The translations under genes were made by a program, and so were the position numbers. Below are positions 1 to 60,241 of a stretch of 64,000 bases of DNA, one piece after another; positions within the stretch are counted from its first letter, which is position 1, and every line of letters starts with the position of its first letter. A model generated the notes under the pieces. The model made no database searches. It was given only the letters and a program-made list of their open reading frames with translations, and was not told where the DNA came from. The stretch comes from Leucoraja ocellata (lineage: Eukaryota), in NCBI GenBank assembly GCA_036785375.1, contig JAWMAR010000289.1, positions 2,604,001-2,668,000 of the forward strand, in the 5' to 3' direction.

Positions 1-948
1 CTTTCCCGTAAATGATGCGACAAGATCAGAAAGAACTTCCTGAAGTGAGAGAGAACGAAAAAAAACCCCGTTAATCAAACAAATTCAAATGCAAATTGTT
101 GCTTTCTTCACTGCTACTTAAGAACTTTATCCTGAGACTTGTAATCCTCCACCCACATCACTAGACCACCGTATGTCGCTCTGCATTCACCAGAAGGACT
201 GTTTGGGGCTGTGGCTAATGTGGTTATGGGAATCAAAGCAATGACAAAATATACGGACACTGGGAAGGGAAAGTTTGCTTTTTACACATCTGTATGTTGG
301 AGAACAGCTAATACTGAAGACCTGGCTTGGAGTCAAATAATGAGTTGAAATTGTTATTTCTGGCCAGTACTCCTTTTTTTTGTTTAAATGGGCTGTCCAT
401 TTTTATTATTTAAATGGAACAGGAATAAATATTTCTAGTGCCTGTGGTCTGGTTCTCCTCCAGGTTTAAAGGCCACACATACTTAGGGATTCCAAATCCC
501 AATCTACCTTTGGTTTGCAAACTGTAGTCTCTCTGCTTATCACTAAGAAATTAAGCATTTAGTTAATTAACACCCAGCTACCTGCCCAACCCTGCACCCC
601 TTAATAACACACACAGCAGTAACTTGTAGCCAGTTTATCTTTAGATTTTTCCTCGGTTCCAGGGACTTTCCAGTACTTCTTGTTCTGATACAGAGATTGG
701 AATAAACTAATAAATGACTTTGATGTTGAAGGAGCAGCCACCCTGCAATACAAACAGCAAATGTGGCTGCTATTGAGAGCAGTGTATGAACTAGCAGTAC
801 AACTTGTTATTCATTAACATTGCTACCACATATCTTGCTTCAAACAGGGGAATCAGCCTTCTGGCGAATGGTGTTACTATGGTGTAAAACCCAGATTATG
901 GTAACAGTCCCACCAGTGAGGGAAGTTGAAGGCAACAGATAATGTTAA

Positions 949-1137
949 CTCAGTAGGTCAGACAGCATCCCTGGAGAACATGGATAGGTGACATTTTGGG
1001 TTGAGACCTTCAGAAGAATGGTCTCAACCCAAAATGTCACCTATTCACGTTCTCCAGGAATGCTGCCTGACCTTCTGAATTACTCCAGCACTTTGTGTCC
1101 TTTTATGTATTAACCAACATCCACAGTTATTTGTCTC
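949..1137. mobile_element. Palindromic Penelope-terminus derivative with 13-bp TSD
   Basis: Inverted arms around ~1010. Direct repeat CAGATAATGTTAA at 936-948 and 1138-1150. Confidence 0.85.
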
Positions 1138-2094
1138 CAGATAATGTTAAATGTCTGTCCTTCTCATCAGTTGATAATACTAATTAACATTAATATGTGA
1201 CAGCAAACAAACCCAAAAGGTAAAATTGTTTTGAATATTGTAACTATGCAGCTTTCTGGACATTAAAATAGAATTTTCCCTGAAATATTTCAGTTTCAAT
1301 TGCAAATTATGATTCAATTCCAAAACGACTCCAGTAAATAGCAGAGTTATATTTAAACCAGCTCAAGAATTAATGCATAATCAAAATGTACCTTGATGTG
1401 ACGTCTGTCAACAGTCTGTAATATTTTCCCCATACACTCCATTAATTACCTTTGGTTTGCACTTGACCCAAGTGAGCAAGTGAAGTGAACAGAGCAGAAG
1501 CTGCGAGGATGATGGTTCCCTTACAGGGGTTCTTGCAGTCACAAAGCTAATGTTATGATAGATATGAACCATTTTTTTAAAACTAAATACTCCAGTTCGG
1601 GCTGACGAACCATACATCCAATGATACTTGTGCAGGAAGGAACTGCAGATGCTGGTTTGGATCAAAGCAAAAGTCCTTTCATTCACAATTTTTTAAATGG
1701 AAATAAGTTCTGAAGGGATGTCAAACATCAACGGCAGGCTAATAAATATCGATTAACTGGACTCTGCCTTCCTGGACAACCAAAAAGACTGAAAAAATAA
1801 AAGGAACTCTTTCGGGCTCTTGAGAATTCATCACCACATTCAATCAGTGTGGCCACTTGGTCACTTCAAAGGTCAACAGTTAGTAGTAGTCTAGCCAGGG
1901 ACTCGTCCTCTGGTCTTAAAGAAGGAATAGAAGTCCTTGGCATGAAAGTCGTTTTCACCAGATAACTATATATCCTACAGTAAAAATTATTATTGGTCCA
2001 ATAGAAATAATATAAAACAGAAGAAGAAAGTGGAAATGCTGAAAAGAGAGAATGAAGAATGGAGTGGATTCTTGGCACATCTAATTAAGCAGGC

Positions 2095-2600
2095 TAGACA
2101 CAAAATGCTGGAGTAACTCAGTGGGTCAGGCAGCATCTCATAGAAAAAATTTAAAAATAGGTGCAGAAGTTAGGCCATTCAATATGATCATGGCTGAAGA
2201 AGAGTCTCGACCCGAAACGTCGCCTATTTCCTTCGCTCCATAGATGCTGCCTCACCCGCTGAGTTTCTCCAGCATTTTTGTCTATCTAAAATCAATACCT
2301 CGTTCCTGCTTTTTCCCCCAATATCCCCTGATTCCTTTAGCCCTAAGAGCTAAATCTAACTTTCTCCTGAGAAAAAGGATAGGTGACATTTTGGGTCAGG
2401 AGCCTTCTTCAGTCTAGGTGTCATTTTGGGTCGGGACCTTTCTTCAGACTCCAGCGCTTCAGTTACTCCGGCATTTTCTATCTATTGAGTTACTCCAGCA
2501 CGTTATGTCTATCGAGATGCTGCCTGACCCGCAGAGTTACTCCAACATTTTGTGTCCATCCTTGGTATAAACCAGCATCTGCAGTTCTTTATTTCTGCAT
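2095..2600. mobile_element. Nested cluster: Penelope-terminus repeat, interrupted by a CR1 3' fragment (minus), itself interrupted by another Penelope terminus with a hammerhead core at 2194-2221
   Basis: GCTGGAGTAACTCAG...GCAGCATC motif resumes at ~2370. CR1 tail motif TTCAATATGATCATGGCTGA is split at ~2196. Confidence 0.75.
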
Positions 2601-3321: not shown

Positions 3322-3442
3322 AAGAGATTGCAGATGCTGGAATCTTGAGCAGCAACAAAGCGCTGTAGGAACTGCAAGCCAGGCAGCATCAGTGGAGGGA
3401 AACAGCCAAACAATGTTTTGGATTGGGACCTTTCTTCAGCAC
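3322..3442 (-). mobile_element. Older Penelope-terminus repeat
   Basis: TGCAGATGCTGGAATCTTGAGC...GGCAGCATC...GACCTTTCTTCAG. Confidence 0.7.
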
Positions 3443-3535
3443 TTAGTTTTTACCTAAAACATATTGATTGATTTTCTTTATTGCCTCAGGAAAGCTGCCT
3501 TATATAATGTATACTTCCAACATTTTGTTCTTCTT

Positions 3536-3855
3536 GGTTTAGTTTATTAGTTCAGTTTAGTTTAGTTTAGCGATACAGTGTGGAAACAGGCTCTTTGGGT
3601 CACTGATTTCATGCCGACCAACAATCACCCCCATGCACTAGTTCTATCCTACACTCTAGGTATAATTTAGAGAAGCTAATTAACCTACAAACTCGCACAT
3701 ATTTGGAATGTGGGAGGAAATTGAGCACCCGGAGAAAACCCACACGGTCACAGGGAGAACGTACAAACTCTGTGCAGACAGCACCCATAGTCAAGATTGA
3801 ACCCAGGTCTCTGACATTTTAAGGCAGCAACTCTACTGCTGTGCCCCTAATGCCG
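3536..3855 (-). mobile_element. HE1-type tRNA-derived SINE
   Basis: (TTTAG)n tail, GTGGGAGGAAA..GAGCACCCGGAGAAAACCCAC body, B-box-like head. Confidence 0.85.
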
Positions 3856-3977: not shown

Positions 3978-4272
3978 AGCAGTGCAGCTAGTATAATTGA
4001 TGTCTCAAAGTACCAGAGACACAGGTTCAATCCTGAACCCAGGTACGGTCTGTGTGGAGCTTGCACATTCTCCGTGACCCAGTGAATTTCCTCCGGGTGC
4101 TCCATTTTTTTTCCACATCCAAAAGCAATCTATAAATTGGCCCCAGCATGTCAGGAGTAGATGAGAAAGTGTGATAACATAGAACTTGTGTGAACGTGTG
4201 ATTGATGGTTGATGTGGACTTGGAGGGCCGAAGGGCCTGTTTCCATCTGTATCACGAAACTAAACTAAAGTA
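3978..4272 (+). mobile_element. HE1-type SINE
   Basis: CCAGAGAC..AGGTTCAATCCTG head; (AAACT)n tail. Confidence 0.8.
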
Positions 4273-7200
4273 AAATAACTTGATTTCAAAGATTGCCTGA
4301 AGTAGACTTTTACAGAAAACTTTCCCGAGCTCAACTGTGCTGGACTGGATACCATGAATATAACCATATAAAACACCATTGAACCATTGATAACTAGACT
4401 CAACTGTCCTAGACTGGGTAGGATGACGGAAAATCAGCCCTTGGCTGCTATTCAGTGAATTTCTGATAGATTGTACGAGTCAATACACTGAACTCATCTG
4501 AAAATGGGTTCTCCATATAATTCTCAGGTCACACAAGTGAGCTGCTTTTCAGACAAAACAGCATCCTTGTAACTAAGCAACAGTATGAAAAGACACCTGA
4601 ATAGGAGGAGGAAAAATACTCGATTATGAGGGGTGTTGATAAAGAAATATAATATTAAGGTAAATGGTATTTTGGGGGGGGTTTTGTTAACCAGACACAG
4701 AGCGCTGAAATGAATAGAAAGCTTGGCTAAGCCTTCTTTTTATACAATACAGATTTCATTTTAAATGATGGAAAGACTCACACAAGTCAGCATAAGAGTC
4801 TGCCCTTTTACAATTACTTTGGAACTTTTATTGCTAATGTTTCCATGACGCCCACTAAAGAATGTCAGTCGCCTGGATTTGAAGGAATGGTTCAAACAAT
4901 TGTTGACGAAAGGGTTAAAAAAAAAAAAAATCTCTCATTCACGAGAGCAGTCATTCATTAAAAGTAGCAAAGTGGGTGGGTTATTGGAGGCAGGGAGCGG
5001 TCAGTTTTTGCATCGAGGTCAAAACGAGACTGTGGTTGCTATTGTTAGGGATTACTGATGTGTGAATGGATAACGACAAGACCCAATGAATAATCAGCTA
5101 CATAAGGGTTTCAGGACCAAAATATCCAAGGTCCTGCATAAAACTCCATAGACAAATTGAATTTGGTTTTGGGAGGCGGTAGTGATGTTCTGAGAGATGA
5201 TAGAAGTAGCGAGAGGACCTTGATACTCTAAGTAGCATTAAGAATAAAAATAAGCTACCTTTGACATGCAAAAAAGATCCAGAGTCCCGTCATATGTCAA
5301 CCATGCAAGGAAACAGATGTTGGGAGGGGAAAGATTAGGAATGGGTGATGAAAAGCCTGGTCATAAATATAGGTCTTGTGACAACCTTTAAAAAGAGATG
5401 CAGAGAAGAGAGGATTAAGAAAGGGGCCCTGTATAAAAAAGAAATTAAATATAGGAATCAGATCTAGACCAAACTACTTAAAATATATGTTCCAAAAAGT
5501 AATTTTCAAATGTGTTGATCTTTTAAAATTACTTAAAGCATAATTATCTGTGAATGCATTTTAAAAGATACTTTCAGAGGCAACACATCCTTTAAGTTTT
5601 ATTGTTTCTTCAGTCATTAATATTTAACGTTCTGTTCAATGAAAAGCACTCACTAAATTCAAAATAAACCAACTGGAGCTAAACCTTTTCAAATTCTTTC
5701 ATATTCTACAAGGATAGGGATCCGGCCCCAAACCCCCCTCCTTCTCCTCACCTTTCACCCCATAACTGCATTAGCATTCAACAAGTCATCATTACCTCCC
5801 AGGTCCTCCAATTATCAGCATGTCAGGAGAGTTGTGGCTTTGCTGTAATTACAGTATGTTTTTGGGTGTCTTGGCAAAGAGGCAATCTGCGGAACTCCAT
5901 CACAGACAGTTTTCTGAATTGAGGCAACTCAAGAACTAGTCACCAAGAACTAATAGAGAATCCCAGCAGTTGAAGAGTAATTCAATGCATGCTAACCACC
6001 CATTTCTCTGCCTTCTACTGCATGACTGAAGTTAATAACACATCTGCTGATGCTCAATGTATTTCATGACACTCAATGTCCATGGAGTTGTTGGCAATTT
6101 ACAAAGGGAACTTGCTGGCTGAGTTTTAACTTTAGCTGCAATGGTGCTGAGATATTTCCCAATGGTCATTATTTTTCTGGCCTTGATCAAACGCCCAACT
6201 CTTGCAAGGACAGGAAAAGAGAAGGCCTAACATATGGCTGTTAGTGGTAAATTGATGAATTTTGCCTTTCCATAGATGGTTGCTGTCAGGCCTCATTTCC
6301 AGGGTCTGATTCTATGTCATTGTGTGGCTCATCAGGTGTCCTTTATTGGTGGAGATGTAGGCATTGCTGGCTAGACCAGCATTTATGATCTGTCTTGAAC
6401 TGCCCTGAACAGAGTGGGTTGATGTAGAACAAGGTGGCTGCTTAATGCTCTGGATAAGCATTATACAACCACCAAAATGGTAGGAGACGTGGGAATAAAG
6501 TGGGACTGCAGAAGTGAGAACATTTGCCAAACCAGATCTTCACGAGTGGTTTAGTATACATGAGGGGCCTCATGACACAGCTATGCTCCAACACTCTAAT
6601 ATTCCAAGGCTTTTTATCAGTTTGCAATTATAATCCACTTAGATCCTCTAAGTCTCTATGACTAACATTTTCCTTAACTCCCCAGGTCCTCCACCTACCC
6701 CCAACCCACATTAATTTGGCAGTAATATGCCTCTAGTCAAAGTTAACTTTCCCCATCCACATATACATCTAAATGTGGTTGCTGGACAGACAAGGCTCTT
6801 AAAAGTAGATGATTTCACAAACTGCTGCAGGGCAGATCAAAGGATTATATCACAGTAATTACCAGCATGACAAGACAGTTAATCAATAAATATTATCCTG
6901 CCAAACTAATTTAGACCAAACGAATTGTGGCCAAATTGCTGAAAGAGTAACAGACTTGGAGGTTGTTAACTAAATATCAGTCTGAAGTTAAAACAGTTTG
7001 TTACCATTTTCTTAATTGGGAGATTATGCTGTATCTTTAACCCCCTGCCATCAAAAGGTGTTTGCTATATAGTGTAGTTACTATTTTCTAGTCGCCTTAA
7101 TACACCATCAAGTGATACAGATGTTTTACTTAATCCATCAGGGGTGCCAATATACTGATTATTACTTGTACAATTAATGAATTATTATTAGTGATTTATT

Positions 7201-7904
7201 ATTTTCAGAAATCTCAAATTACCAGTTACATGATTTCCACGAATGCCCTGAAGAAACACAAATAAAACTAATAGGCATTTTTCCCCTACGGATCTATCCA
7301 CATTATTGATTCCTTTCAGATTGCCAATAAGTTACCATTTGCTCTGATTGATTGACTAACGTTATTTCGTCTCAATTGGTTTCACAGCTAGCTTCAAAAC
7401 AATACTAAAATACGTAGGTTAAACCTTTGTTTGCTACACTTAGGTAAAACGTCCTTCATTATGGATTTTAATTAAACTGGTTTGTTCAATAACGGGTTTG
7501 GGCTATAATGTACAGGGTTCTAAACATGGTCATGATGGTATTTCTGTTTGCAATCACTTAAAAGTAGGTGAACGAATGAATGTTCATCCCAGCTGAAAGG
7601 ACTTAACATCAGTCATAACATGTACCATTAAATCTTGCATGTTATAATGTCCAGATCTAGATGCCGGTATACAGAAGCACAGTTCTTTAACTACAAGTTA
7701 TACCTTCCACTTCCCTGCCCAATAACAGTATTAAGGACTTGCAGGTTAGGAACACACATCAGGGGCAATAAGTTATAAAGCAGCAACGTTTTGTAAAGAG
7801 TCAGCAAACATTTGTGGTGATACCACGAGTTGCTATGGCATCAAACGATAGGCCAAAGTTATGAAAAGGATGTTCAATAGACAGAATGAAAAGTAAGAGT
7901 TCAG

Positions 7905-8110
7905 CCATATTCAAAAGGTGGTGCCTGGAACCTGGTGCCTTATGGCACTGCCAGGGGCGATGGTTCGAGGCTGATACGATAGTGACAATTAAGAGACATT
8001 TTGATAGGCAGGGAAGTGAGATATATGGATTATATGCAGGTCAATAAAATTTGGTCTTGGCATCATGTTCGGCACAGACGTTGTGGGCTGAAGGGCCTGT
8101 TCCTGTACTA
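7905..8110 (+). mobile_element. CR1 3' fragment
   Basis: GGTGGTGCCTGGAAC...GGGCTGAAGGGCCTGTTCCTGT. Confidence 0.7.
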
Positions 8111-9532
8111 TCTGCATCAAGGAGGACAAAGGTAGCAGGCACGTAGGAACACCACCACCTGCAGGTTCCCCTCCAGGCTGCATATCTTACAGATTTTAAA
8201 ATATTTTACCATTCCTTTGTCATCTCCGAGTCACGGTGGGAATGCCTTCATTGTAAGGACTGCGGCTCAATATCAACTTGCAATGGGCAATTAGGATGGG
8301 AATTAAATGCCGGCCTTGTCAGTGATGCCCAAATCCTCAAAAAATAAATTTAAAAATATGCAAACTAAACCCGTGGAAAATTATTTGGTAAATAAAATTG
8401 GTACCTGTGTATATATCCAATATCATTTCACATATTAAAATAAATGAAGGCTAATTTGATGATATTTCAAGCATAATGGAATTCACATTATCGACTCCTA
8501 ATTCACATTATGGATGTCAAGCATAAATATTCCAGTAGTAATATAAACCTTACCTCTTTTATTCTATTTTTATTTTACCTCTAATATTCCACACTCAATG
8601 AAGCTCACAGGCTTTAACTGGCTCTGAGCCAGTGGATGAGCTGCCGTTAGAAATCATTGGAATCCTTCTTTACAAAAACAGATCTTAACCATCGTTATTA
8701 CCACTGGTTTGTGTGAAATGTGTGAATCAGGTGCATGTGGAAGACTAGGCTACAATTTGATGGCCCATGTGCTCAAACTACCTGCTCAGTGAAGTACACA
8801 TGAACAATGAACTGATAGAATTGTCCCAAAGGGGACCAGTTATAAAGAGGTGGCAAAAAGACATAGTGAGAGTGTGGGAGAGACCCAGCACAAAATAAAT
8901 TCATTGCATTGCAATAACCATTTCTGGACCCTGCTGAGCCAATGTCGATGATCATAACGCCTTTTCCATCAAATATTGACCAAGTTTCTCAATTATCAAA
9001 TATTATTACCTTGCAAGAGGTTTCACAAAAAAAAACTGCATTGAGAAAAATTCCATAAAACCTGTTTTCCAGTGTTTCCTGCAATGTAATTTACATTTTC
9101 CTGAAAATGCACAGTCTTCTTTCTTTGCCACAGGCATCAAGATCAGCCATCATACGACTCTTTGATGTGCTCACTGGATCTGTTAAGGCCTGCCCTAGTA
9201 AGAAAACACCTCCAATCTGGTAACAAAACATGCTCTAACGGAGCTTTTCTTTACAAAAGGGAAGTTCACAGTCGCCATTATGACTTATCTTCACCGGTGC
9301 ATGTCCAACACCTGGACAGTTGTTATGGCTAACTGACTGCTAATGAGTCTAATTAGCCCATGAGGGTAGGGGCCGGCAGTGAAACCTAATTAAAACCTAC
9401 AGAACAAGGCCAGACCTACTGTTGAAAATTATGTTTGTTTTCTAGTCAACAAGAAGTTGGACACTAGTCATTAGCAAAATGACATGGAGTTGCTGGTAAT
9501 TAAGAACTTGAAAGGAAAGTTTGACTAAACAT

Positions 9533-9820
9533 AAGACTTTATACATACAGTGTGGAAACAGGCCATTCGGCCTAAGAGTCCGTGCCTACCAGCGATCACC
9601 CCATACACTTGCACTATCCTACACACTAGAAACATTTTACAGTTTGCAGAAGCCAATTAACCTATAAAACGACAAGTCTCTGGAGTGTGGGAGGAAACCG
9701 GAGCACCCAGAGAAAACCCACACAGTCAAAGGGAGAATGCACAAACTCCATACCGACAGCAACCATAGTCAGGATCAAACCCGGGTCTCTGGCACTGTCA
9801 GGCAGCAACTCTACCACCCT
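9533..9820 (-). mobile_element. HE1-type SINE
   Basis: Same body as 3536-3855. Confidence 0.85.
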
Positions 9821-10527: not shown

Positions 10528-10630
10528 CTGAGTTGGATGATCAGCCATGATCATATTGAATGGCGGTGCAGGCTCGAAGGGCCGAATGGCCTACTCCTGC
10601 ACCTAATTTCTATGTTTATATGTTTCTATG
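10528..10630 (+). mobile_element. CR1 3' tail fragment
   Basis: GATCAGCCATGATCATATTGAATGGCGGTGCAGGCTCGAAGGGCCGAATGG. Confidence 0.88.
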
Positions 10631-11897: not shown

Positions 11898-12025
11898 AGT
11901 CTGAAGAAGGATCTCGACCCAAAACTATTCCTTTTCCCCAGAGATGCTACCTAGCCAGCTGAGATACTCCAGCTTTTTGTGTCTGCCTTAGGTTTAAACC
12001 AGCAGCTGCAGTTTCTTCCTACACA
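11898..12025 (+). mobile_element. Penelope-terminus repeat (decayed hammerhead core)
   Basis: GTCTGAAGAAGGATCTCGACCC...GAGATGCT...CTGCAGTTTCTTCCTACAC. Confidence 0.8.
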
Positions 12026-14829
12026 TTTTGAATGGTCCAACAACCCTCTCATCAAAATATATTTCTCCCAAGGTCTCACCTCACTACCTTTGCCAAAAAT
12101 TTTAAACCAATGCTCTCTCATTGTCAACCCCCCAGTCAAATGACCATCATCATTTTGAACAATGTAATAAAATGGAAAGATGGAGGAAAGAGCTGTAGAT
12201 GCTGGTTTCAAATGGAAACATGTTTATTCCTGGAGTGATATAAGAATTGCCTAAATAGTAGTAGGAATATTTCAAAGGTTCATCAATCTTTCCAAGAATG
12301 GAATGTCTTTGCTGGGAATGAACAGATTGTTTTGTACAAAAAATGTCCCGTTGCTGTAGTGATGACCGGACAAACTTAACACCTGACAGGAACTCCTAGA
12401 AATAGTGCTCACTGTTCATCACACACTTGAGTAATGTATGCACACTCCACTCGTTGCCTATCCTGCTTCAATCTTGGTATTCTCTGGATCTGTCACAAAA
12501 CCAGGAGTGGAGTATGGAATAGCAAAAAGCAAGAATACAGCTTGGAGTCAAGACAAGGATAGGTTAAACCCCCTTTTGAGAATAATCTCTCTGAACATAC
12601 CACAAAGTAAAGCAGAAATGGAGATTACCAAACATGGAACTCTTTGATGTCTCTGGTTTATAAACTTTAAGTAGAAAATAAAAATAAGTATAATTTTCTA
12701 CGAAAGGGCAAAGGAACGTGACACAGTTTCATTTGAAACACCAGCAGCAATGCTTAAATCTTGTTCACCCATTAGTACATTGCTATCATTATTTTCAACC
12801 ATTTATAAAGGGTCAATAAATAATAAACAAGTTTTCTTCCAAACTTCCGTCTTTCAAATATTACAAGACTTTGCTCGGTTATTTCTTGTCCACTGCTGTT
12901 TTTAAACTTCTTTCAATAATAAGTAATTATTGTATTATTCAACTTCATATTTACAGCAAAGTAAATACATATGTGTTTCAATTATACTGGTGGATTTTCC
13001 TTCATAAGAGTGCTATTTTTGCAATGTTAACTGATGCTGGTTTCTTGCATCATATAGCTTTGTGTCTTGGACATTTAAATTCTGATAACACCTAGTCTTT
13101 TGCAAGGTTTGTGTCCTGCAGAAAAGGGGCTGATATGTCTGGGGTGAGAATTTAGACTGAGATTTTGTCTGGAGGCGCACAGCACGGTCGAGTAACTTTG
13201 AAGTGAACTCCAAAATTATAATAGTGAACACTGCCTCTTATAACCAACACATCCCGAGCAAAGTCACCACTGCTCTCCCAGCTGCTCACTTAGAAGGAGG
13301 TTTAAAAACATGCAAGAAGGGAAACATCATAGTCTAATGATATCATTGAAGGGAAACTAAAACAAGAGTTTGAAGAGCCAATGAACATCTGCTAGCTATG
13401 AGCAGCTGGCCTGATTCCTAGATCAACTCCAAAGACCACCAACAGATCAAAGGTGTAACATTTCATCATTTTGTCATCCACCAATACCGCTGCCCCCACC
13501 CTATCTCTCCATCTGAAAAACAAATTTTTGAAGTGTATTTATCACCAGCAAAGCAGCATCATTTTGTTATATTTTTCGACAATAACATCAAATAACCTTG
13601 CGTAGTATCTCAGAAAACCACAATAGATGTATAGTATGTTCCAGAGGGTCTCATAATGTTTTTAATCGTTTTAAGAAAGTGCTTTCTACAGTAGATTTCA
13701 TCTCAGAGAATAGGCTCCATGCTGTTTTTTTTCAGTGTATTTTCATTTGCAGAAAAATACTAAAATTGTCTCCAGATGTCCTTGGATCCTAAGCTTGCCT
13801 GGTTTTGTTTTCCTTTCATGGTATATTATACTGTTTTATTACTTGCCCCTCGTGCAGGGCAGCTCACAAACCACCTGCTGTCAGAAAATTTTACTTCAAA
13901 CCAATCCTGTAAAGCGAAATGGCTCTGGAACCTCCACCCCGTCACAAAAGTGGCTACTGAGTTTCCTGAAATTCCCTCACCTTTCCAAGAGTAGAAGCTC
14001 AGATGTTGTTCACTGTAAACAGCAACTCTTCACTGACAAAACAATTGGGGACAAACTTGGGGAAACTGAGGGGAGCACAGTGCTGCAATGTTGGCACCAT
14101 ATTAAAAAATGTCCATGCAAATGGGCTGGATTGTAAAAGCCATTGCATCAAAGCCTGGAGGGCATTCTATTCTTGACTATTAGAGATATCCTTTTTGTGT
14201 GTGTGTGTGTGTGTGCGAGAATTTTCCACACATTTTCTCATATCCAAAATCCAAGTATGGAGAGGTTAAAGTGCTTGAAACATACATGCAAGACTAAAAC
14301 TAAAATGAACACATCCACTTAACTTGTCTAGTCTATAAAAGATGGCAACGTTTTCCAAGTATTATAAAAAATGTTGTGCTCTATAAACAGACTGTATGGA
14401 AACTGTGGAGCGTCTAATCACAATGAATCTCCTGAGCCTTGTTTATGGTCAGTCTGAGGAAATGTGGGTAGACACATCTGGGTGTAAAGACGGAAATAAA
14501 AGTCAGGTGGTTTTCATGACGCGAGGTCAAACTTCATGTGTCTTTGCCATGTTTATTGTAACAGATGCATATTTGTAAGAAAGCCCATTTAAGATAATTG
14601 CTGAATTTAGGATAATTGGGAAAAAGTGACAGAGGTAAGATTAGGAGGTTTTCTTTAAAAACACAACATGTTGTTGTAATCTGAGTACTTTTCAATCTTC
14701 AAACTTTTCAATCTCGTTCCATTCTGTACAGACAATGGGAGCAGATTGCCAACGTGACTTCAAAGAGAAATTTAAACAAAGCACTTGAAAAGAAAATGAT
14801 ATAAAGCAATGGAGAAAGACAAGGCGTTA

Positions 14830-45496: not shown

Positions 45497-45547
45497 TGGG
45501 CGGTCGAGTGTCGATGGTTGTCCAGAGGAGTTAATCAAACGTGGACC

Positions 45548-45550
<3 letters not shown>

Positions 45551-45588
<38 letters not shown>
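45551..45588. repeat. (GA)n microsatellite
   Basis: Direct reading. Confidence 0.95.
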
Positions 45589-45590
<2 letters not shown>

Positions 45591-46310: not shown

Positions 46311-47074
46311 GGCGCTCTCTCTCTCTCTCCCCCTCTCCCTCGCTCTGACTTCTCTCCCGGCTGCAAGTTACGGGAGAATAAATGGCAGCAGGTCCGGCCG
46401 AAAGTTTCTCTTCTCCTCGTCCCCCCGCCCCCACCCCCTCCCTCCGCTCCTCACTGCAACCTTGCAGGAAACGCCATTCCGCAGCCCCGCCACTCCGCGG
46501 CGACTTCTCCGAGAGCAACCCAGGCGTTCTCCGCCTTTGCGATCATCAGTTGCCGTTTTGGTGCCTTTTTCTTTTTTAAAGAGGTTTTAAATGTTGCGAG
46601 GAAGACACGGAGCGGATCGTCTGGATCGGGAGCGGCGCGGGTTTCCGCCCTATCCCCACCACAACCCCTCTGTCTCTCCCTCTGCCTCTCGCCCACCCTC
46701 TCCCTCTCTCTCCCCCTCCCTCCCCCCTCACTCTCTCCCTTTCTTTCTCTCCACTCCAACACCTCCACTATCCGACCACAGGTCGAAGTTGAAACATGTG
46801 CCGGCACCGAGTCAGGACAGTGAACCCCAGCAGTGGAAGGAAGCAATGTGAATGTGCCAGTGTGGTTCTTGTGGTGGTCGCTGATTCCCACATTGCTGCT
46901 GTGGGTGTGGGAGTTTGCTCTGCTCATTCCAATAGTGACCGCTTCACAGCGTTGTTCCGTTGACTGTAACCCCCCCACTGGGGCTCCTGACAAATATAAT
47001 GTTTAAAGATTCAGCGAGTTGGATTTGAAGGTAAAGCACTGGGTGTATTTTCTGTACTGGTGTCTTACCCTTAG

Positions 47075-47272
47075 GCAAAACACAAGAATCTGGAGGAACT
47101 CAGCGGGCCAGCAGAGACCGAAGAGGGAATGGGCAGGCGACGTTTCGGGTCTGAAGAAGTGTCCCCGAACCTGAAACATCGTCTGTCCGTTCCCTCCCGT
47201 GATGCAGCCAGATCGGCTGAGATCCTCCGGCACTTTAGGTTTTGTCCAAGATTTCAGCATCTCTCGTGTCTT
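47075..47272. mobile_element. Palindromic Penelope-terminus derivative
   Basis: GGAACTCAGCGGGCCAG...GACGTTTCGGGTCTGAAGAAG...GAAACATCGTC...GCTGAGATCCTCC. Confidence 0.72.
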
Positions 47273-47727
47273 CTCCTTAGTCAGTAGGTCCATGAGCCCC
47301 TCTAACCTGTGTCGATTAGATCACAGCTGATCCGCAACTGCCCTCAGCTTACTTGACTTTGCTCCTTATTCCCCGATTGAATCATCCATCTGGATCGCCG
47401 CACGTTGGGAACTTTTAAATTACTATCACTTTTTTTTATGTGAATGTATGTTTTCCCCATATAAATTGACTAGCTCTACATTCAATATTATGTCCCCTTG
47501 TCACAGATGCCTCCAGAGAAAATAGCTTATTTTATTGTATATAAACCTGACTGGATTTCTAATCGTCCTTAAAACTTCATCGCGGAAACGCAAGCAACCG
47601 ATTAATATGCCATCAACCCTTGTATCCATTCTGCCTAAATGTCAATTTTTCAAATCCCCATGTTGTCAATACCTGTTGTCATCTGCTGAGAGTTATCAGC
47701 AAATTTAAATATAACAGCTACTGTTTC

Positions 47728-47980: not shown

Positions 47981-48224
47981 ATCGCTGTTTCTGTCGTCCC
48001 ATAATGAGAGGTTCCAGGGTTCCCCAGGGAACACCACATTATATCTTACTATTCATATTATCAGTTTCTTATCTTCTAATCCAAGTAAAAGGCAATATCC
48101 GTTTCCACACAGTATCATTCTTGCGAATCACCTTATTCCTGAGTCACTGGAGACTGTACGGTGATAACAGTCATTGACCTTCCCTTTGTTTACTTTTTTC
48201 ACCAATCTCGAATCTTTATTGCGG

Positions 48225-48745
48225 AAGAAGAAATTGCAGGTGCTGGTTTACGCCGAAGATAAGACACAAAATGCTGGAGTATCCCTGTCCCACTGTACGA
48301 GTTCATTCAAGTGCTCTCCCGAGTTAAAAAAAAAATCGAACTCGTGGTAAGCACGGAGAATGAACGTAGCGGGCACGACGGAGCCCGGGGACGTCTCTTA
48401 GCGGCTCGTAACGCTAACGGCAGGTACTCGGGAAACGCGGTAAGCTCGGGAAGACTCGAGGAGATTTTTCAACATGTTGAAAAATGCCCACGAGAGCCCC
48501 GAGTACCGACGAGGCGGCCATTACCGTAAATCTCCGAGTTCGAATCAGGGCAAACTCGAGAGAACTCTTTGAATGAACTGGTACATTGCTTTAACTCAGC
48601 GGGAGAACCAACATCTCTGGTGAGAATGAATGAGTGAGTTTCGGGTGGAGACCCTTCTTCAGTCTGGGTCTTGATCCGAAACATCACCTATTCCTTCTCT
48701 CCACAAAGTCTGTCCTGCTGAGTTTCTCCAGCATTTCCTATCTGT
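48225..48745. mobile_element. Palindromic Penelope-terminus derivative interrupted by a MITE
   Basis: GCTGGAGTA at ~48273-48281 resumes as TAACTCAGCGGG at ~48592. Confidence 0.75.
48283..48590. mobile_element. Harbinger-type MITE with degenerate ends
   Basis: CCTGTCCCACTGTACGAGTTCATTCAA ... TTGAATGAACTGGTACA inverted repeat. CpG-rich interior. Confidence 0.72.
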
Positions 48746-50020
48746 ATTGCCTTTGCTATCTGTTTCATTTTCTCTATTTTGTGACTCCCCCACAAGTGTG
48801 AATTCCTTCACATAAACATTATTGATACTCAACCTTATCATTTCATTAACGCCAACAATTGCCAGCAATAACTGATATAACTCCAAATCGTTGACTCCGT
48901 GGTTATTGTATTCCCATTCCCGTATATTCCCAATCCCCATGCATATTCAGCATTATAAAATGTTGAGGCTCAAGGGACTGCAGATGCTGGAATCTTGAGC
49001 AAAACACACAAAGTGCTGAAGGAACTCTGGTGTTCAGGCAAGATATTCTCTGTTGTATTTGAATCTAAACCCGTTGTGTTTTGCTATTTCAGGTCCAGCA
49101 GTATTTGCTCATCATTTTTACCTTTCCACCCCAATAAAATCGATCACCACTACAGACCATTTAGGTCCAAAATCCCAGAAGTACAATCCATTCCCCCAAG
49201 CACCTTTCCCAATATCCCTGAAAAGTATCCTCTCTCAGTCCCCATTGACTCGCCTTTGATTATTTTTAGCAAAAACCTACACTTATGGTAACTTTATTCT
49301 TCAATTGTCCAGCAAGACTGTCCGAGAATATTAGAGGAACCCAGTGCATTCAGAGGAAATATGCAAATTCCCGAGAACCAGCATTCATGTGCAGAATTGG
49401 ACCCAGGTCTGTGAAGTTGAGCGGTAGCAGCACTAACACTGTGCCACAATGCCACTTGTTCACTCTGAATGGGAGATGAAGAACATCTCCCACACAGATG
49501 CTCTGCATACGTCCAGTCGGTCGGTGTGCGTTTCTCCTCTCAGGGCAACCTTCTTGCCTCCTCGCCTGTTCTGTGTGAGGAGGGAGACACACAGAAGAGA
49601 GAGGAGGCGAGAAGGTAGCCTGGAGGCCCTAAGACCAGTTGTAGCTTCAATTCATGGTTTATAAAAATCCTGGCTTCAGAGATCACACTAGAAACATAGG
49701 AGATTTAATAAACTCAATAGGATGAGATGACCTTACTGCAATGGAAATGTCCATCATAGAGAACATTATGGATTCCAAGGGCTCCATCATGATGAAGAGT
49801 GCATAATTTTAATAAATGATAGGGTAGAAGAATGACAAATGGGCAACTGTGTTTTGGGGTGAAGTAACCCGTCACTAAAATGCCTACAATGTTGCCATTT
49901 CAGTCCGATACCCTACAGGCAATGAACAATTCAAATGGGATCATTATCTCTGAATAAATATAACATTCACCTATATGGTAACCTGTTTCATCTGATAGAC
50001 AGTCTGTTTCCACCCTGCAT

Positions 50021-51587
50021 TCCATTCTCTAGGCCCCCATCCCCTCATCTTCACCATGGACGTCCACCACTCTACACCTCCATCCCCCACCAAGATGGTC
50101 TCAAAGCCCACCGGTTCTTCCTCGACCGGCAAACCAACCAATACCCATCCACTGATACTCTGCTCCGCCTAGCGGAGTTGGTCCTTACTCTCAATAACTT
50201 CTCGTTTGACTCCTCCCATTTCCTCCAAATACAAGGCGTAGCTATGGGCACGTGCATGGGCCCCAGCTATGCCTGCCTCTTTGTAGGGTACGTCGAACAA
50301 TCCTTGTTCGAGGCGTACCAGGGCCCTATCCCCGAACTCTACCTCTGCTGCATCGACGATTGCTTTGGTGCTACCTCCTGCACCCACACACAACTGACTG
50401 ACTTCATCCGCTTCACCACTAACCCATCCAGCACTCAAATACACCTGGACCATTTCCGACACTTCCCTACCATTTCTTGACCTCACTATCTCCATCGCAG
50501 GTGATAGACTTCTGACAGACATCCACTATAAACCCACTGACTCTCATGGCTATCCACTCTACACTTCTTCCCACCCTGCTTCCTGTAAAGACTCCATCCC
50601 CTACTCCCAATTCCTCCTTCTACGCCACATCTGCTCCAAGGATGAGGTGTTCCACAGCCGGGCATCGGAAATGTCCTAATTCTTCATGGAACTGGGGTTC
50701 CCCTCCCCTACTATAGATGAGGCTCTCACCAATACCCCGTAACACTGCTCTCTCTCCCCATCCCCCCCACTCGTAACAAGGGCAGAGTCCCCCTAGTCCT
50801 CACCTTTCACCCCACTAGCCGTCACATACAACAAATAGTCCTCCGTCATTTTCACCACCTCCAACGTGACCCCACCACTCGCCACATCTTCCTATTTCCC
50901 CGTCTACTTTCCGCAAAGACCGCTCCCTCCGTAACTCCCTGGTCAATTCTTCCCTTCCCTCCAGCACCACCCCCTCCCCGGGCACTTTCCCTTGCAACCG
51001 CAAGAGATGCTACGCTTGTCGCTTTACCTCCACTCTCTACTCCATTTAAGGACCCAAGCAGTCATTCCAGGTGCGACAGAGGTTCACCTGCAACTCCTCC
51101 AACCTCATCTATTGCAGCCGCTGCTCTAGATGTCAGCTGCTCTACATCGGTGAGACCAAGCGTAGGCTTGGCGATTGTTTCGCCCGAACACCTCCGCTCA
51201 GTCCGCATTAACCAACCTGATCTCCTGATGGCTCAGCACTTCAACTCCCCTCCCATTCCGAATCCAATTTTTCTGTCCTGGGCCTCCTCCATGGCCAGAG
51301 TGAGCACCACCGGAAATTGGAGGTGCAGCATCTCATATTCCGCTTGGGCAGTTTACACCCTAGCGGCATAAACATTGACTTCTCCAATTTCCGGTAGCCC
51401 TTGCTGTCACCTCCCCTTCTCGGCTCTTCCTCAGCCCTCGGGCTCTTCCTTTCTCCTTCCCGCCCCCCCCCCCCCCCCCCCCCCCTACATCAGTCTGAAG
51501 AAGGGTTTTGGCCTGAAACGTTGCCTATTTCCTTCGCTCCATAGACGCTGCTGCACCTGCTGAGTTTCTCCAACATTTTTGTCTACC
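50021..51587 (+). mobile_element. 5'-truncated, frameshifted Penelope-like retroelement (RT + GIY-YIG endonuclease + 3' pseudo-LTR)
   Basis: RT motifs LYTSIPH, LVLTLNNFSF, QIQGVAMGTCMGPSYACLFVG and the decayed YIDD-like CIDD. GIY-YIG region SSNLIYC..CSRCQLLYIGETKR at ~51095-51165. Ends in the common terminal repeat with a hammerhead core. Confidence 0.93.
51495..51522 (+). ncRNA. Minimal hammerhead-ribozyme core in the Penelope terminus
   Basis: CTGAAGA-A-GGGTT(TT)GGCCT-GAAA-CGTT, i.e. CUGANGA / stem II / GAAA / minimal stem III / UH. Confidence 0.6.
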
Positions 51588-53419
51588 TCTGTTATCTCTA
51601 GACTTGCCTTTCCGCATACTCAGTTATCTGGCCTCGTACTCTGCATCCTTTGTAAACGTGGAACTCATGCAGAACTGCTTTCCGTACTCTAACTGCACTA
51701 AATCGTTTTCACTTATTGTACTTGTGTTGCCAACCCATATTGCACTCCCCCCCCCCCCCCTCCCCCCTCCCCCCTCCCCATTAAGGCATCACAGTGTTCC
51801 AATGTATTTTCATGTGACATAATGTTTGAATCCTCCGTTGGTTCGTGTCTTTTTTTAAATTTATCCAGCCCTGTAACCCTCTGTAATCCGTACTCCTTGG
51901 GTTTTGTCCTTGCGTTTATTTGAAATTGTCATTGCTCTATTATTGATGACAATACCTTCAGGGGCCTAGGGACAGGAATTCTTAGCATAAACTTTCCCAT
52001 TCTCTGTTCCTCTGCCTTCTTTCCTTGCTCATTAAAAGCGATGCCTCATTGGTCACACCTTTGCCACCCAACCCGATGAGCAGCAGCTTCCAAATCTCGA
52101 TAAGCAAAAGAAAAAACAGCAGATGCTGGAACTCTGAAATAAAGGCAGCAAATGCTGGAAACATTCAATGGGCCAAGCAGCAGCTCTGGTGCGCGTAATA
52201 AAATTAATATTTCTGCTTGATTACTTTTCATCGACTAGGGAACATATCTCCATCATATTTCAACTCGTTTACCTCTGAAACCCAAAGCTGAAAATGTTGT
52301 TTATTGCCTTATGTGATCCAGGGAGGCGGTGCATTGCTTATATTGCCAGTTTAGCAATACAAAGGCCTCCAGCAACGATTCAGCCACCCTAGTCCAAAGC
52401 CCACCGAGGCAGCTAAAGAAACAATGGTCACTAACACTTCCAACCACGAAACCATAATTTGGAGCAGTAATATTCTTCAGGGGCCATCGGCGGTGCTTCC
52501 CTGGTCTCGGCATAGCTTCAAACCTACAACAATCTGGTTGACTCACAAGTGGCCTCGCAAACCACAGTGCGCAGAGTCAGCTGGGGATGGGCAATAAACG
52601 TTGGCTTTGACTACGATTCTGAACAATGAGTAAACCACTCTCCTGTTAAGCGCCGCGATTGTTGTCGTAGAAAGTAGTGCTAGCCAGAAATCTAGCCAGA
52701 GTGTACGCTTCAAAAAAGATTTCGATTATTCTTCACCCTTTTTACATCATCCTTTGATTTATGTGCAGTGCTCTGCTGTAAATTACTAGCATCTTTCTTG
52801 GAGACAGAGCTCAATCCCATTGTAATGAAAAATACAAACACAGCCACAAGTGTAAGGAATGGGGATATTTACAGAGCGAAACACATTTATGGATCTCTGT
52901 CCATTTTACATGATTTATTTTCTCTCCAGTAACAGGATATTTAACTAAAGAACCATTTGGCTAATGCTTATCACCTTTCTTCAAATGCAGACCTGATGAT
53001 AAAAGATGTTCGGGATCGCTGCAGAGATCAGCACCGATTTTGGAAGAGGCTACAATTACCCATTTGGCAAACCTGTTAGCAGAACAAAAATAGATTTTCA
53101 TCAGTAATAGGTCAAAACGAATACGTCTATTGAGGAGTTATTCTAAATGCGACAGAAATTGAATGCATGACTGAAATACGTAGCTTCGGAACAATTTTGT
53201 TAAATATTCACTGGCTGAATGATTCCAATGTTGCATGTTGTCTGAGCTCTGAACTTCCTTTGTTCCCCAACAGGGGTTCTTCGAGTACCAACGAGTAAAT
53301 TGAACCAAATTGAGCGGGACGGTGCTAGTAAGAGCATCATGGACCGAGCGGCCGCATTCTCAGAATAATGGCCTCCACGTCAATTAACCCCCGGGTCGGA
53401 TTTGGCTTTACGTTTAATT

Positions 53420-54984: not shown

Positions 54985-55305
54985 GGCCGGACTCGAGACC
55001 GTCATCTACCCCGTCCTTGTCCTGGTACTAGTTTCACTGTCATCCTGTTGAGTTTCACCGTATAACTCATTACCACCCAGCCCACAGCCGACAATGGACC
55101 ATATGGGCTCCACCTAGATCATCATTACTTTTTGCATATCTTTTGTTCTACATCACCATCTATATTTCTTGTTTCCCTTTCTCCTGACCCTCAGTCTAAA
55201 GAAGGGCCGCGGCCCAAAACATCACCTATTCCTTGTCTGCAAATATACTGCCTGATCCGCTGAGCAACACCAGCTTTTTGTGTCTATCTTCGGTTTAAAC
55301 CTACA
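54985..55305 (+). mobile_element. Penelope 3' UTR/terminus fragment inserted in a CR1
   Basis: Ends TCAGTCTAAAGAAGGG...CCCAAAACATCACCTATTCC...GTGTCTATCTTCGGTTTAAACC. Confidence 0.7.
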
Positions 55306-55507
55306 CAGTGCCATCCTATACACATTGTATCCAGTCAGTTTTCTCTCCTTGGATCCCAGAACAGCTTACCATACAGAACTTTATTAAGTGCCTTACTAAA
55401 ATCCATGTAGACAACATCTATCACCCTATCCTTAATGATCACCTTCATCACTTCCTCAAAAACTCTATTGAGCAAACAAGACACGACCTGCCATGTACAA
55501 ATCCAAG

Positions 55508-55597
55508 GTACACAAAAAAAACCGGAGAAACTCAGCGGGTGCAGCAGCATCTATGGAGCGAAGGAAATAGGCAACGTTTCGGGCCGAAACCCTTCTT
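55508..55597 (-). mobile_element. Penelope-terminus repeat of the same subfamily as the 50021-51587 element
   Basis: Minus strand: AAGAAGGGTTTCGGCCCGAAACGTTGCCTATTTCCTTCGCTCCATAG. Confidence 0.82.
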
Positions 55598-57480: not shown

Positions 57481-58827
57481 GAACTGGAGTACTGTGAAGT
57501 GGAACTGTTCTAATCCCTGATGCCAAAATGGACATAAACAAGTGAAAAATGGGGAACGGATTTTCTGTTTGCAATGTGCAAAGGAGAAAGAATGAAACTA
57601 ATTTCTACAAGACCAGAGGTTTCAGCTAAACATAGATGACTATATATGTATCACACTGATATTTCAATAGCTGCTTTCTTTCAGTCTTTCATATTACATA
57701 TCACGTATCAAACATTACATATCGTTCAATCGGAGTGTGCTATTTAGATTCAAATTCTCAATGTCAATATAATAAATTAGTTTTATTTAGAAATTGGTTA
57801 GCGCAACAAAACATTATTCTCCTTGATAAATGGATAGAAGCATAATGGTTTAACCATGAGAAATCAAAAGTCACCCACAAGAAATCTGGAATAAGAACCC
57901 CAACAATGTAAGTTCAAAACTTACAAATTCCCACAGTGAAATTTAAATTGCTCCTGACCTTTAGAGTGTTTGATTGTCTGACCTTTCACAGAAAGTCACA
58001 AACATCACCCATTCCTTCTCTCCAGAGATGCTGCCTGTCTCGTTGAGTTACTCCAGCATTTTGTATCTATCTTCAAGATAATTGATAGTCCTGGAAATAC
58101 CCAGCATCCATCAACAATCCCATCCCATTATATGAAGACTCTATGCCTCACCTCTGCAGTGGTCCCAGGTTTACAGGAGCTTGGTATTACGGGGACATAT
58201 ACTGGAACCTCACCATGGCAACACCAACATTTACAGTTTGTCTACACTACCAATGTCAATAAAGGTCACAGATACCATGGGATTGTCTGATAATACTTGG
58301 GGAGGCTGACCACAAAACCTTATTAAGGACTTGGTTTCTCGCAGTCTGCTTTGGTGGCCTGGCCTCCTTGATCATGGCACCAGGCTCCCAAAGCATACAA
58401 TCTATCATGTGCCCTGTCAGAGGAAGATATCTCTCTCATTTACTCTCACTATCCAGGTGAAGTGTTTCAACCGAAAACTTCAACTAACCATTTCCCTTCC
58501 ACAGATGCTGACAGGCCAGCAGTTTGTTTCTTGCACTAGATTCCAGTATCTGTGGATCATAGGAACAGATCACAAGGCAAACAAAGAACAAAGTTGTACT
58601 CAAAGCCTTTTTGAAGGAAATCAGCATCCTCACTGACGCCTGGGTACCTCTGACCTGTGTCTGCTCAATGTGGAGAAGGAGCAGAGAAGTGGAGTGATCC
58701 TACACTGGGCTCAGTGGCAACCTCACTACTGGAGCAGAAGTAAGACATCCTCGATCCCAAGACTGGATCAGAAGAAAAAGAGACAATCAGCCCTGATACT
58801 TGTCAAGTGGCAGTAGTGGGTTCTTTA

Positions 58828-59442
58828 AGGGCCTGTCCCACTTACATGTCCTTGGCACACAAATTACGCAAACAGCCCCGCGAAGGTCGGGCGCGATTTC
58901 ATGTGTCCGCAAAGTCGTCTGGAACGCGTGACGTTATTTGAAGATGGACACAAAGCTGGAGTAACTCAGCGGGACCGGCAGCATCTCTGGAGAGAGCAAT
59001 GGGTGACGTTTCGTGTCAAGACTTCTTCAGTCTGAAATGATGCTGCCGGTCCCGCTGAGTTACTCCAGCATTTTGTGTCTATCTTCAATTTTCTTGCCCG
59101 CGCTCTGGGAGTAGAAGTGGGAGCGGATCCGGACCGCAACGGCCGTGAGCCCCAGGCCGAGCTCGGCGATCGTTTGCCTGCTTCTGCTGCTGTTGGAGGT
59201 GAGACGTTACGTCGCGCCAGGGTCTTGGGTCTGTCCCACTTTGGCCGTCAGTTCCGCGACAGGCCGTTGGCGCGTGAAGATTTCGTTCACTACAAAGATT
59301 TTGGAGCCCCGCGCGATGACGCGCACAACTCCGTGCTTCTCAGTGGGACCGCCCCGCGCAGTCGTACGATGCCCATGCGCCTCAACGCGACCACGAGGTT
59401 GCGTAATTTGCGTGCCATGGACCCGTAAGTGGGACAGGCACT
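58828..59442. mobile_element. PIF/Harbinger-type MITE containing a palindromic Penelope-derived segment (~58937-59088)
   Basis: TIR AGGGCCTGTCCCACTTAC... / ...GTAAGTGGGACAGGCACT, about 45 bp and imperfect. TTA TSD at 58825-58827 and 59443-59445. Confidence 0.9.
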
Positions 59443-60139
59443 TTAGTCATTAGCAGGAGACAACTGTGCCGTTTGTCCACAGATACTGTAAGCCTTTATA
59501 TTACCCTGCAGAACACAATTCCTTACATCCCTTCTTCCCCACCCTCATACCAGGAAGGGTGTCTTTAAATTACGCAGCAGTACTTAATCCCCAAATCCTT
59601 TCTTCCCCACCCTCTCATCAGGGAGGGTGCACCAAAGCATTGTGATTTCTAACACTTACATTTTCCTGGACATAACAGTGGGTGTCAACACGTAAAGGAG
59701 GTCTCTTATTGTTGGGAAAACCTAACTCGTGGTGTTACCTAATCCATGTCTGGCACTCCCTCAGTGCACAGAAAGTTTAAGCAGAACTTTCTTTGACATT
59801 GGTTGCCTACATCTTGTTTTGAATCTCATTTTCTGCTTTCTAATGTTACATTAGGTTGCTGCCTGCTTAAATAAAGCAATTACAATGGTGCAATATAGAG
59901 CAAGAGTGTCCCATTACAGTACGGCTTGTAAACTGAAAGGCATATTGTTATTAAAGCTTGTTCCAGGATCCTGCTGCGCAGTGATCAGAGACACTATTAA
60001 AGTGTTCATGGTTGGTCTCCATGCAGTCTCAGAAACAACTCTGTCTTAAGTCACCTGGCAATTGTGCCAAATGCTGCAATTAAAGCCATACCCTTAGTTT
60101 CATGTGAAGTGTGAATTCTTTACACACCAACCACTTTAC

Positions 60140-60241
60140 AGTAAAGATAGACACAAAAAGTTGTAGTAACTCAATGAGACAGGTAGCATCTCTGGAGAGA
60201 AGGAATGGGTGATGTTTCGGGTCAAGACCCTTTTTCAGACC
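60140..60241 (-). mobile_element. Penelope-terminus repeat
   Basis: GATAGACACAAAA...GATGTTTCGGGTCAAGACCCTTTTTCAGACT. Confidence 0.8.

Follow-up and report, generated by a model that had tools for sequence, protein, structure and literature searches.

Short hammerhead-bearing repeats in a skate genome window are mostly decayed end pieces of Penelope-like elements with a non-random 5' end

We analysed a 64,000-nucleotide stretch of the genome of the skate Leucoraja ocellata (contig JAWMAR010000289.1 of assembly GCA_036785375.1, positions 2,604,001 to 2,668,000 of the forward strand; hereafter the window), in which a short repeat with a minimal hammerhead ribozyme motif occurs at high density. 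This repeat is the terminal repeat (pLTR) of several subfamilies of Penelope-like elements (PLEs), and most of its short copies are decayed pieces of PLE ends with an already known minimal hammerhead motif. With modest confidence, we regard them as side products of normal PLE retrotransposition whose form reflects a fixed 5' end of the RNA, at which the reverse transcriptase (RT) runs off. An earlier reading made from the letters alone (the sequence-only reading) had proposed a non-autonomous, retrozyme-like family; its basic observation, the PLE origin and the non-random 5' ends hold, whereas the retrozyme label and the compensatory changes in stem II do not.

A profile built from 13 window copies detected 35 repeat segments; the reversed window gave none. 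This confirms the repeat and raises the earlier count of about 20 copies. The segments group into 26 loci, about one per 2.5 kb, and 22 of these loci show no extension upstream of the unit. A typical short unit is 95–135 bp long, and young copies are 93–97% alike. Four public runs, namely RNA reads (X22), two sets of contigs (X6 and X1) and X17, were compared with the copy at 33880–34100 (minus strand). In the summed contigs of X6 and X1 the core is covered about a million-fold more deeply than the unique flanks, a depth ratio that is not a copy number; as a rough figure, only an order of 100,000 to 1,000,000 copies genome-wide can be given. The exact motif had no match in prokaryote genome contigs or viral contigs. 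Throughout, positions in the unit are counted from the A of AGTCTGA (+1), so that C3 of CUGA is +4, G12 is +24 and cleavage falls between +31 and +32; in the reference copy, +1 corresponds to 34030 and cleavage to the step from 34000 to 33999.

The short copies match, by blastn, the 3' end of a broken, 5'-truncated PLE at 50033–51590 (plus strand), which bears out their derivation from Penelope termini; the element had been placed at 50021–51587, but its homology begins at about 50033. Translations and homologs identify an RT from motif A onward (E 4e-27), the thumb, a Cys-rich linker between RT and endonuclease (CNRKRCYAC at about 50993–51019), a GIY-YIG-type endonuclease with the motif LYIGET, a 3' untranslated region (UTR) and a pLTR. 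The frames are broken by frameshifts, and the endonuclease frame has a stop at 51395–51397. Of 32 candidates, 13 are homologs of the endonuclease region; the best of them, named from Mobula, Leucoraja, Hypanus and Rhinoraja, are 60–73% identical to it. For those of Mobula, Leucoraja and Rhinoraja the figure is 67–73%, and the nearest proteins belong to rays and skates; three of four scanned homologs contain GIY-YIG (PF01541), and one also contains RVT_1 (PF00078). No Pfam family was matched by the 11 window open reading frames (ORFs) or the four read-through pieces, the PLE pieces included. A Cys-rich, Zn-finger-like linker is the defining trait of Neptune/Nematis-type endonuclease-containing (EN+) PLEs (PMC8557442; here and below, statements from the literature refer to excerpts of the sources), and the vertebrate PLE clades are Neptune and Poseidon (bioRxiv 10.64898/2026.07.22.740005), which together suggest a Neptune-type label for the window element. 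A candidate 7-bp target site duplication (TSD) of this element at 50026/51595 is not above chance. No RNA data set was listed for 49000–53000, which says nothing about expression.

The pLTR of the long element (51492–51589, plus strand) has +1 at 51492 and a hammerhead at 51495–51522 with a G-U pair in stem II and a GUU triplet. Before it lies a pyrimidine-rich 3' UTR (51398–51491, plus strand) with a run of 25 C, which ends in CATC directly before +1 and could be read as a possible intron, with GT at 51394 and CAG at 51491–51493. A second, older PLE fragment (36741–37231, minus strand) consists of a linker/endonuclease remnant joined to a pLTR (blastn 69%; tblastn E 2e-7). Sequence comparison reveals another pLTR with tail at 55130–55325 (plus strand), with +1 at 55193, that runs upstream into a pyrimidine tract presumably of its own, its upstream limit not being fixed. 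As a separate observation, the annotated skate proteins P0002 and P0005 join a C-terminal piece of PLE endonuclease to unrelated sequence, and are either exonised PLE fragments or errors of gene models.

The insertions themselves look like those of PLEs. Among the 3' ends of 22 segments, 13 fall near +95 and five at +134/135, with two within the tail and two in short arms; these positions are subject to an overshoot of local alignments, by a few bases, and include one arm positioned by eye. There are two discrete 3' ends about 38 nt apart, and the common tail is seen in 1366 reads of the public runs; in PAc, an EN+ PLE, such an optional tail marks two internal RT start sites (PMC11167929). Head-to-head inversions occur at seven loci, of which four (936–1150, 33922–34058, 37789–37969 and 47060–47280) are flanked by TSDs of 13–15 bp (scores 13, 13, 11 and 9 in falling order), while none of the 19 other loci exceeds a score of 7 and a null of 200 pairs reaches at most 9. 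The restriction of TSDs to inverted loci hints that both target strands were primed in those events. Together with the optional tail, the partial tandems and inverted 5' arms are those of PLE-type pLTRs, the same traits are known for PLEs elsewhere (PMC3846280; PMC8557442), and mobilisation by a PLE RT, as had been suggested, is supported.

The 5' ends are concentrated at one point. Among 33 hand-placed window ends, 18 are spread over +3 to +72, 11 lie at −2 to +2 and four continue upstream; two segments whose ends stem from a later insertion and an internal deletion were left out, and some ends share a locus and are not fully independent. The 11 comprise nine ends at +1/+2 and two symmetric junctions, and the hotspot is the AG of TCAGTCT, 2–3 nt before CUGA. 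A constant truncation rate predicts 0.6 ends at −2 to +2 (P about 4e-13). The starts close to the CTGA core that had been cited are accurate (11898 and 14830 at +1, 17157 at +2), and the view that the ends are not just random 5' truncations is upheld, with the same pile-up in the public runs. Among the 24 end positions listed for these runs, +2 and +1 account for 996 and 1004 RNA reads in X22, at least 1388 and at least 1436 contigs in X6, and at least 1418 and at least 1466 in X1. The flanks of these ends are unrelated to one another (agreement 0.31–0.34), with median lengths of 251–255 nt in X6 and 134–135 nt in X1. Another class ends at −2 (1772, at least 2296 and at least 2344 in X22, X6 and X1); its purine-rich plus-strand consensus is the pLTR pyrimidine tract, and its flanks are shorter (107 and 78).

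The same point recurs at junctions. Of the 15 joints listed for the public runs, ten leave from window positions 34028–34032 (+3 to −2), and within the window the junctions at 2415, 2450, 17157, 47149 and 48665 turn or jump at +1 or +2. The four long copies have TCAG in common although their upstream sequences do not align, and the pyrimidine fraction upstream is 0.68–0.92 in them as compared to 0.24–0.48 in copies that stop at +1/+2. The letter before +1 is G in X6 and X1 and not in X22 or X17, which is too weak to serve as a cap-G signature.

According to the scheme that we favour, the PLE protein would nick the target DNA and start reverse transcription inside its own RNA at one of two sites, about +95 and about +134, as modelled on PAc and in agreement with the 3' ends found here. 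Many templates would begin at +1, the A of the initiator-like TCAGTCT, most simply through a transcription start in the upstream pLTR; the motif presumably fits the initiator consensus with this A as +1. On a template that starts at +1, RT would run off after 95–135 nt, and a fixed RNA end is the simplest cause of a fixed complementary DNA (cDNA) end. The junctions suggest that a run-off cDNA may be joined to the target by microhomology, giving a simple unit with no TSD, or may pair with itself or with a second cDNA, giving a head-to-head unit that often has a TSD of 13–15 bp, and that the enzyme may also jump to another template, giving a partial tandem. Two cDNAs ending at +1 could anneal through AGACT/AGACT, with one central mismatch, to form the symmetric CTTC-AG-W-CT-GAAG junction, as at 34030 and 59033, and priming of both target strands would account for TSDs at symmetric junctions. 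Priming at the downstream pLTR would produce the ordinary long copies, variably truncated. Ribozyme cleavage has no visible part in the formation of the short units, which are probably dead on arrival. Several of these steps have precedents: for PAc, RT starts internally and a shorter RNA 5' end yields a shorter product in vitro, cutting and extension affect both target strands, mutation of the hammerhead leaves insertion normal, and the minimal RNA reaches past the RT start sites (PMC11167929), and PLE transcription starts within the pLTR (PMC2377424).

Several points weigh against a run-off at a fixed RNA end. [quoted passage not shown] The initiator-like pattern YYANWYY matches 1.2% of window positions, and the equal counts at +1 and +2 require an extra assumption, either two starts or trimming of ends. 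The end table covers the 24 positions listed, with 633 more beyond them, the X6 and X1 counts are lower bounds, and contigs are not copies. The sole raw RNA run, which is polyA, fragmented and from a related species, shows no pile-up of molecule starts or ends, a weak objection. Finally, hammerheads from metagenomes, which belong to other, AT-rich families (at least 123 loci) and serve for comparison only, include nine families with at least four matches each, among the matches listed, that have no such spike and whose 5' ends lie from 1 to more than 300 nt upstream; the hotspot is therefore not general to PLEs.

The splice-acceptor context could mean that +1 is a truncation hotspot and not an RNA end, if a bound protein or structure at the pyrimidine tract or 3' splice site halts RT, or if templates were spliced at CAG/TCTGA to assorted host exons. 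Exons commonly end in AG or G, and such exons would mimic starts at +1/+2. The tract and CAG lie directly upstream of the unit in all four long copies, at the place of the D. virilis acceptor. However, subfamilies whose upstream tracts are unrelated share the stop to within 2 nt, and the flank consensus of the +1/+2 ends is AT-rich, heterogeneous in the DNA runs and free of any single shared exon. A captured 5' segment should also have a distant TSD, and in a search over 600 nt upstream of eight simple copies no candidate rose clearly above chance (best score 9 against a null maximum of 11). We think this explanation quite unlikely. Plain random truncation, with a pile-up created by alignment where subfamily homology ends, would suit the 18 broadly spread ends, the existence of long copies of about 0.5 and 1.5 kb, the upstream regions that do not align between subfamilies, and the ascription of single motifs to truncated PLEs (PMC4209133). 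It is hardly tenable given that copies stopping at +1/+2 have non-pyrimidine flanks, that +1/+2 ends in the public runs form a class apart from the −2 class, and that jumps and inversions use the same point; end counts, flank composition and public-run ends largely refute it.

The short units might also be a true non-autonomous family, SINE-like (short interspersed element) or founded on solo pLTR masters, some copies of which produce RNA from +1 and are moved again in trans by the PLE protein with no ribozyme cutting. A shared, defined 5' end, very high density, the absence of upstream extension at most loci and the likeness of young copies all agree with this, and both putative non-autonomous PLEs (PMC8557442) and trans-mobilisation of pLTRs (PMC3846280) have been described. 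On the other hand, a start at +1 leaves the unit without the TC of the initiator-like motif, no tRNA-like head is found in the window, and by analogy with PAc the units would end before the RNA region required for RT binding (PMC11167929). The two protein-linked pLTRs are each nearest to short copies (90% and 82%), and in an identity matrix of 16 copies the ORF-linked ones are interspersed with the short ones. Short copies made directly from the transcripts of autonomous elements would show this closeness, which lends no support to the separate lineage that had been proposed. We judge such a family to be unlikely.

Metazoan non-LTR (long terminal repeat) retrozymes are tandem repeats cut by their own hammerheads into circles (PMC7229834; bioRxiv 10.64898/2026.07.22.740005), and the retrozyme-like proposal would have hammerhead dimers cut the RNA, the RNA circularise and the PLE RT copy the circle. 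The window contains no tandem array, only two short two-copy pieces in one nested locus. Among the 15 joints listed, head-to-tail dimers number at least 4 in 118,549 and at least 7 in 135,253 contigs of the two contig runs, with none among the RNA reads; rare tandem forms of the family may exist. None of the 33 window 5' ends lies within 2 nt of the cleavage site (+30 to +34), and no end position at the cut appears among the 24 listed for the public runs. Because the common start is about 30 nt upstream of the cleavage site, it is not a product of the ribozyme. In the polyA RNA both strands are read equally and 99% of aligned reads continue into other sequence, in a library type that loses small circles. 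The retention of the core across subfamilies, the weak cleavage of PLE minimal hammerheads as dimers (PMC4209133) and the tandem retrozymes of the sole chondrichthyan sampled (bioRxiv 10.64898/2026.07.22.740005) are in its favour. Given the dimer and end counts above, together with the state of the motif and its predicted folding described below, we nevertheless regard a retrozyme-like cycle as very improbable, and the label is not retained.

The motif itself is genuine: the 28-mer hammerhead has four window matches at three or fewer mismatches and none in 100 shuffles. Of three copies cited as intact, the one at 34000–34027 (minus strand) is exact, whereas 2194–2221 (plus strand) has one mismatch that breaks a stem II pair and 51495–51522 (plus strand) is the GGGTTTTGGCCT/GUU variant. 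The parts of a minimal hammerhead, namely CUGANGA, GAAA, the bulge, the G-C base of stem II and the palindromic 15.2–16.2, are exact at 34000–34027. In the young subfamilies helix I falls short of the 4–5 bp usual for PLE minimal hammerheads and has 2 bp, as the sequence-only reading had cautioned; a length of about 5 bp is confined to the older copy at 32589. Core letters were scored in 19 rows, one of them a padding artefact and one aligned on a neighbouring unit. All 15 are kept in two rows, with stem II also unbroken only at 34027, and G12, the general base of the hammerhead (PMC6155905), is changed to A in 10 rows by CpG decay. In the public runs G12 is changed in 14–17% of aligned sequence and the other core CpG letters in 9–18%. 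Such a loss of core letters is what neutral decay following insertion looks like. The core is common to the subfamilies while position 7 varies freely (CTGAAGA and CTGATGA), which argues that it is probably constrained in the active parent elements.

Stem II gives no sign of compensation. The change from GGGTC/GACCC to GGGTT/GGCCC that had been called compensatory is one-sided (U-A to U-G and C-G to U-G) and produces wobbles; a both-sided change occurs in just one stem II cell among 18 copies, and the fifth pair would close a 2-nt loop. The covariation score of 18 window copies, a small sample of decayed copies, is reached by 157 of 500 shuffles. Rfam returned 11 matches at E ≤ 5 in the window, none of them a hammerhead, and its hairpin matches are inverted loci. 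The hammerhead fold was not predicted in any of five folded copies (z between −0.9 and +0.9), its predicted probability in the monomer is 0.01, and the predicted minimum-energy fold of the dimer pairs stem II palindromes instead. The ribozyme case for this repeat is weak; the hammerhead is a known PLE passenger motif that decays once inserted.

The individual loci illustrate these outcomes. The young unit at 33936–34044 (minus strand), with +1 at 34030, is the only one with a fully intact core and stem II (34000–34027), and has a 14-nt inverted arm and a 14-bp TSD at 33922/34045. Another young unit (2192–2287, plus strand), inside a fragment of a long interspersed element (LINE) tail, has a 5' join by CTGA microhomology, a 2-bp target loss and no TSD; its core is intact, with one stem II mismatch. 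Units from +1 lie on the plus strand at 11898–12026, with the far 3' site (with tail) and a decayed core, and at 14830–14924, with the near 3' site and G12 and G16.2 lost via CpG decay. The unit at 17141–17290 (plus strand) runs from +2 with a tail and has 16 nt of another unit in front of it, a partial tandem of the template-jump type, and a unit with a decayed core at 60147–60240 (minus strand) also runs from +2.

Head-to-head pairs, on both strands, include 936–1150, with a perfect 13-bp TSD at 936/1138, and 37789–37969, joined at the GGAATTCC palindrome (+36), with a tail on one arm, a perfect 13-bp TSD at 37789/37957 and no hammerhead core. An older-family pair at 47060–47280 has one arm from +2, a turn at a GAC microhomology and a borderline 15-bp TSD with two mismatches. 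The pair at 48590–48745 has a +1/+12 junction, and that at 58940–59085 is symmetric about AG-W-CT with its second arm internally deleted. In the old nested locus at 2090–2592 (both strands), two antisense pieces ending at +1 (2415 and 2450) turn to sense at an ACT microhomology, followed by three short sense pieces; a LINE-tail insertion at about 2140–2366 splits this locus.

Among the remaining units, 55507–55597 (minus strand) is young, starts from +7 and is the closest relative (90%) of the long element's pLTR. The older-family pLTR at 32476–32600 (minus strand) has a CTGATGA core, flanks able to pair into a stem I of 5 bp that contains one mismatch, and about 17 nt of upstream pyrimidines, and an older-family unit at 3324–3443 (minus strand) has an apparent +1 start. 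Other units begin at +6 with a tail (36016–36148, minus strand), at +25 within the core (58000–58075, plus strand) and, in an old, degraded copy, at about +9 (58458–58551, plus strand). Core-less fragments comprise one that adjoins a LINE-tail copy (25059–25121, plus strand), one with a tail from about +72 (48224–48285, minus strand), and three of the older family on the minus strand (29504–29593, from about +38; 48972–49040; 52119–52194).

The window also holds other repeats. The LINE-like 3' tail family, which ends in TTTCTATG repeats, lies at 16543–16923, 34615–34865, 63584–63961, 10528–10630, 24977–25060 and about 2140–2366; two of its copies are 95% alike over 241 bp, and the copy that split the old pLTR locus later received a young pLTR unit itself. 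A second dispersed, SINE-like repeat of about 280 bp, 70–80% alike, is found at 3550–3848, 9534–9817, 23363–23613, 61266–61526 and 63115–63413, and no tRNA was called in the window. Two 190-bp inverted repeats (39862–40051 and 40672–40859), 90% alike, start with TACAGTG and stand about 620 bp apart, presumably a non-autonomous DNA transposon of the Tc1/mariner type. A GC- and CpG-rich island at 43500–47000 (50–64% GC), around a gap of 539 N at 44958–45496, is possibly a promoter region.

The literature searched, with most subscription papers and Repbase entries outside its scope, contained no account of this repeat family or of a PLE run-off step. The skate motif shares with the PLE minimal hammerheads of PMC4209133 the core, the bulged base before stem II, the G10.1-C11.1 position and a palindromic ACGU with no helix III. 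Those hammerheads, reported from fish Neptune PLEs, are likewise mostly single dispersed motifs; their helix I usually has 4–5 bp, as compared to 2 bp in the skate repeat, for which D. virilis offers a precedent (PMC4209133). In the metagenome families, helix I has at least 4 bp in 80 of the 127 matches listed, with real pair exchanges (second pair CG 83, GC 16, TA 15). These unrelated families also have two 3' end classes, about 50–68 and 104–115 nt past the core, at a spacing close to that of the skate repeat, and four of their loci (L038, L045, L101 and L112, in the series L001–L123) are head-to-head pairs. At 26 loci per 64 kb, the skate repeat would far outnumber the 4,000–9,000 motifs reported for coelacanth and Xenopus (PMC4209133), although most of its copies are decayed.

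Insertions of EN+ PLEs, as described for PAc (PMC11167929), for Adineta Penelope (PMC3846280) and in PMC8557442, share with the skate repeat two 3' ends 30–40 nt apart, head-to-head 5' inversions, palindromic junctions, TSDs, microhomology joins, partial tandems and solo pLTRs. The excerpts of these three sources ascribe solo pLTRs to recombination or deletion and do not state a single-base 5' hotspot at the hammerhead's 5' edge such as the skate repeat has. Metazoan non-LTR retrozymes resemble it in being non-coding, related to pLTRs and dispersed as monomers with a type I hammerhead, but they form tandems of 150–450 bp with mostly canonical, active hammerheads and abundant circular RNA (PMC7229834; bioRxiv 10.64898/2026.07.22.740005), whereas the skate repeat is not arrayed, its motif is minimal and decayed, and its ends bear no relation to the cut.

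The PLE terminal repeat and its minimal hammerhead were already known, and our results suggest that what is notable here is the very high density and a clue to how pLTRs form. In retroviruses, minus-strand strong-stop cDNA is primed near the RNA 5' end, runs off and jumps templates to copy the rest. The likeness is an analogy only, since priming in the skate repeat is by nicked target DNA, so that failed products integrate. As a tentative possibility, PLE retrotransposition may include an obligatory step of this kind, in which RT would be primed close to the 5' end of its RNA and run off at the cap, so that the ORF could be copied only after a jump to the 3' pLTR. In the ray/skate lineage, failures would then be so frequent that aborted cDNAs make up an Alu-like repeat of the roughly estimated size given above, perhaps the largest hammerhead-motif family in a genome, part of which may now propagate itself.

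For annotation, hammerhead searches in such genomes return masses of decayed PLE ends and not working ribozymes or retrozymes. [quoted passage not shown] The repeat addresses the open question of how pLTRs are regenerated, for which there is no obvious mechanism besides tandem formation (PMC2377424), and of how the tandems and head-to-head inversions of PLEs arise. If true, the strong-stop-like step would explain pLTR regeneration, head-to-head inversions and TSDs in one scheme.

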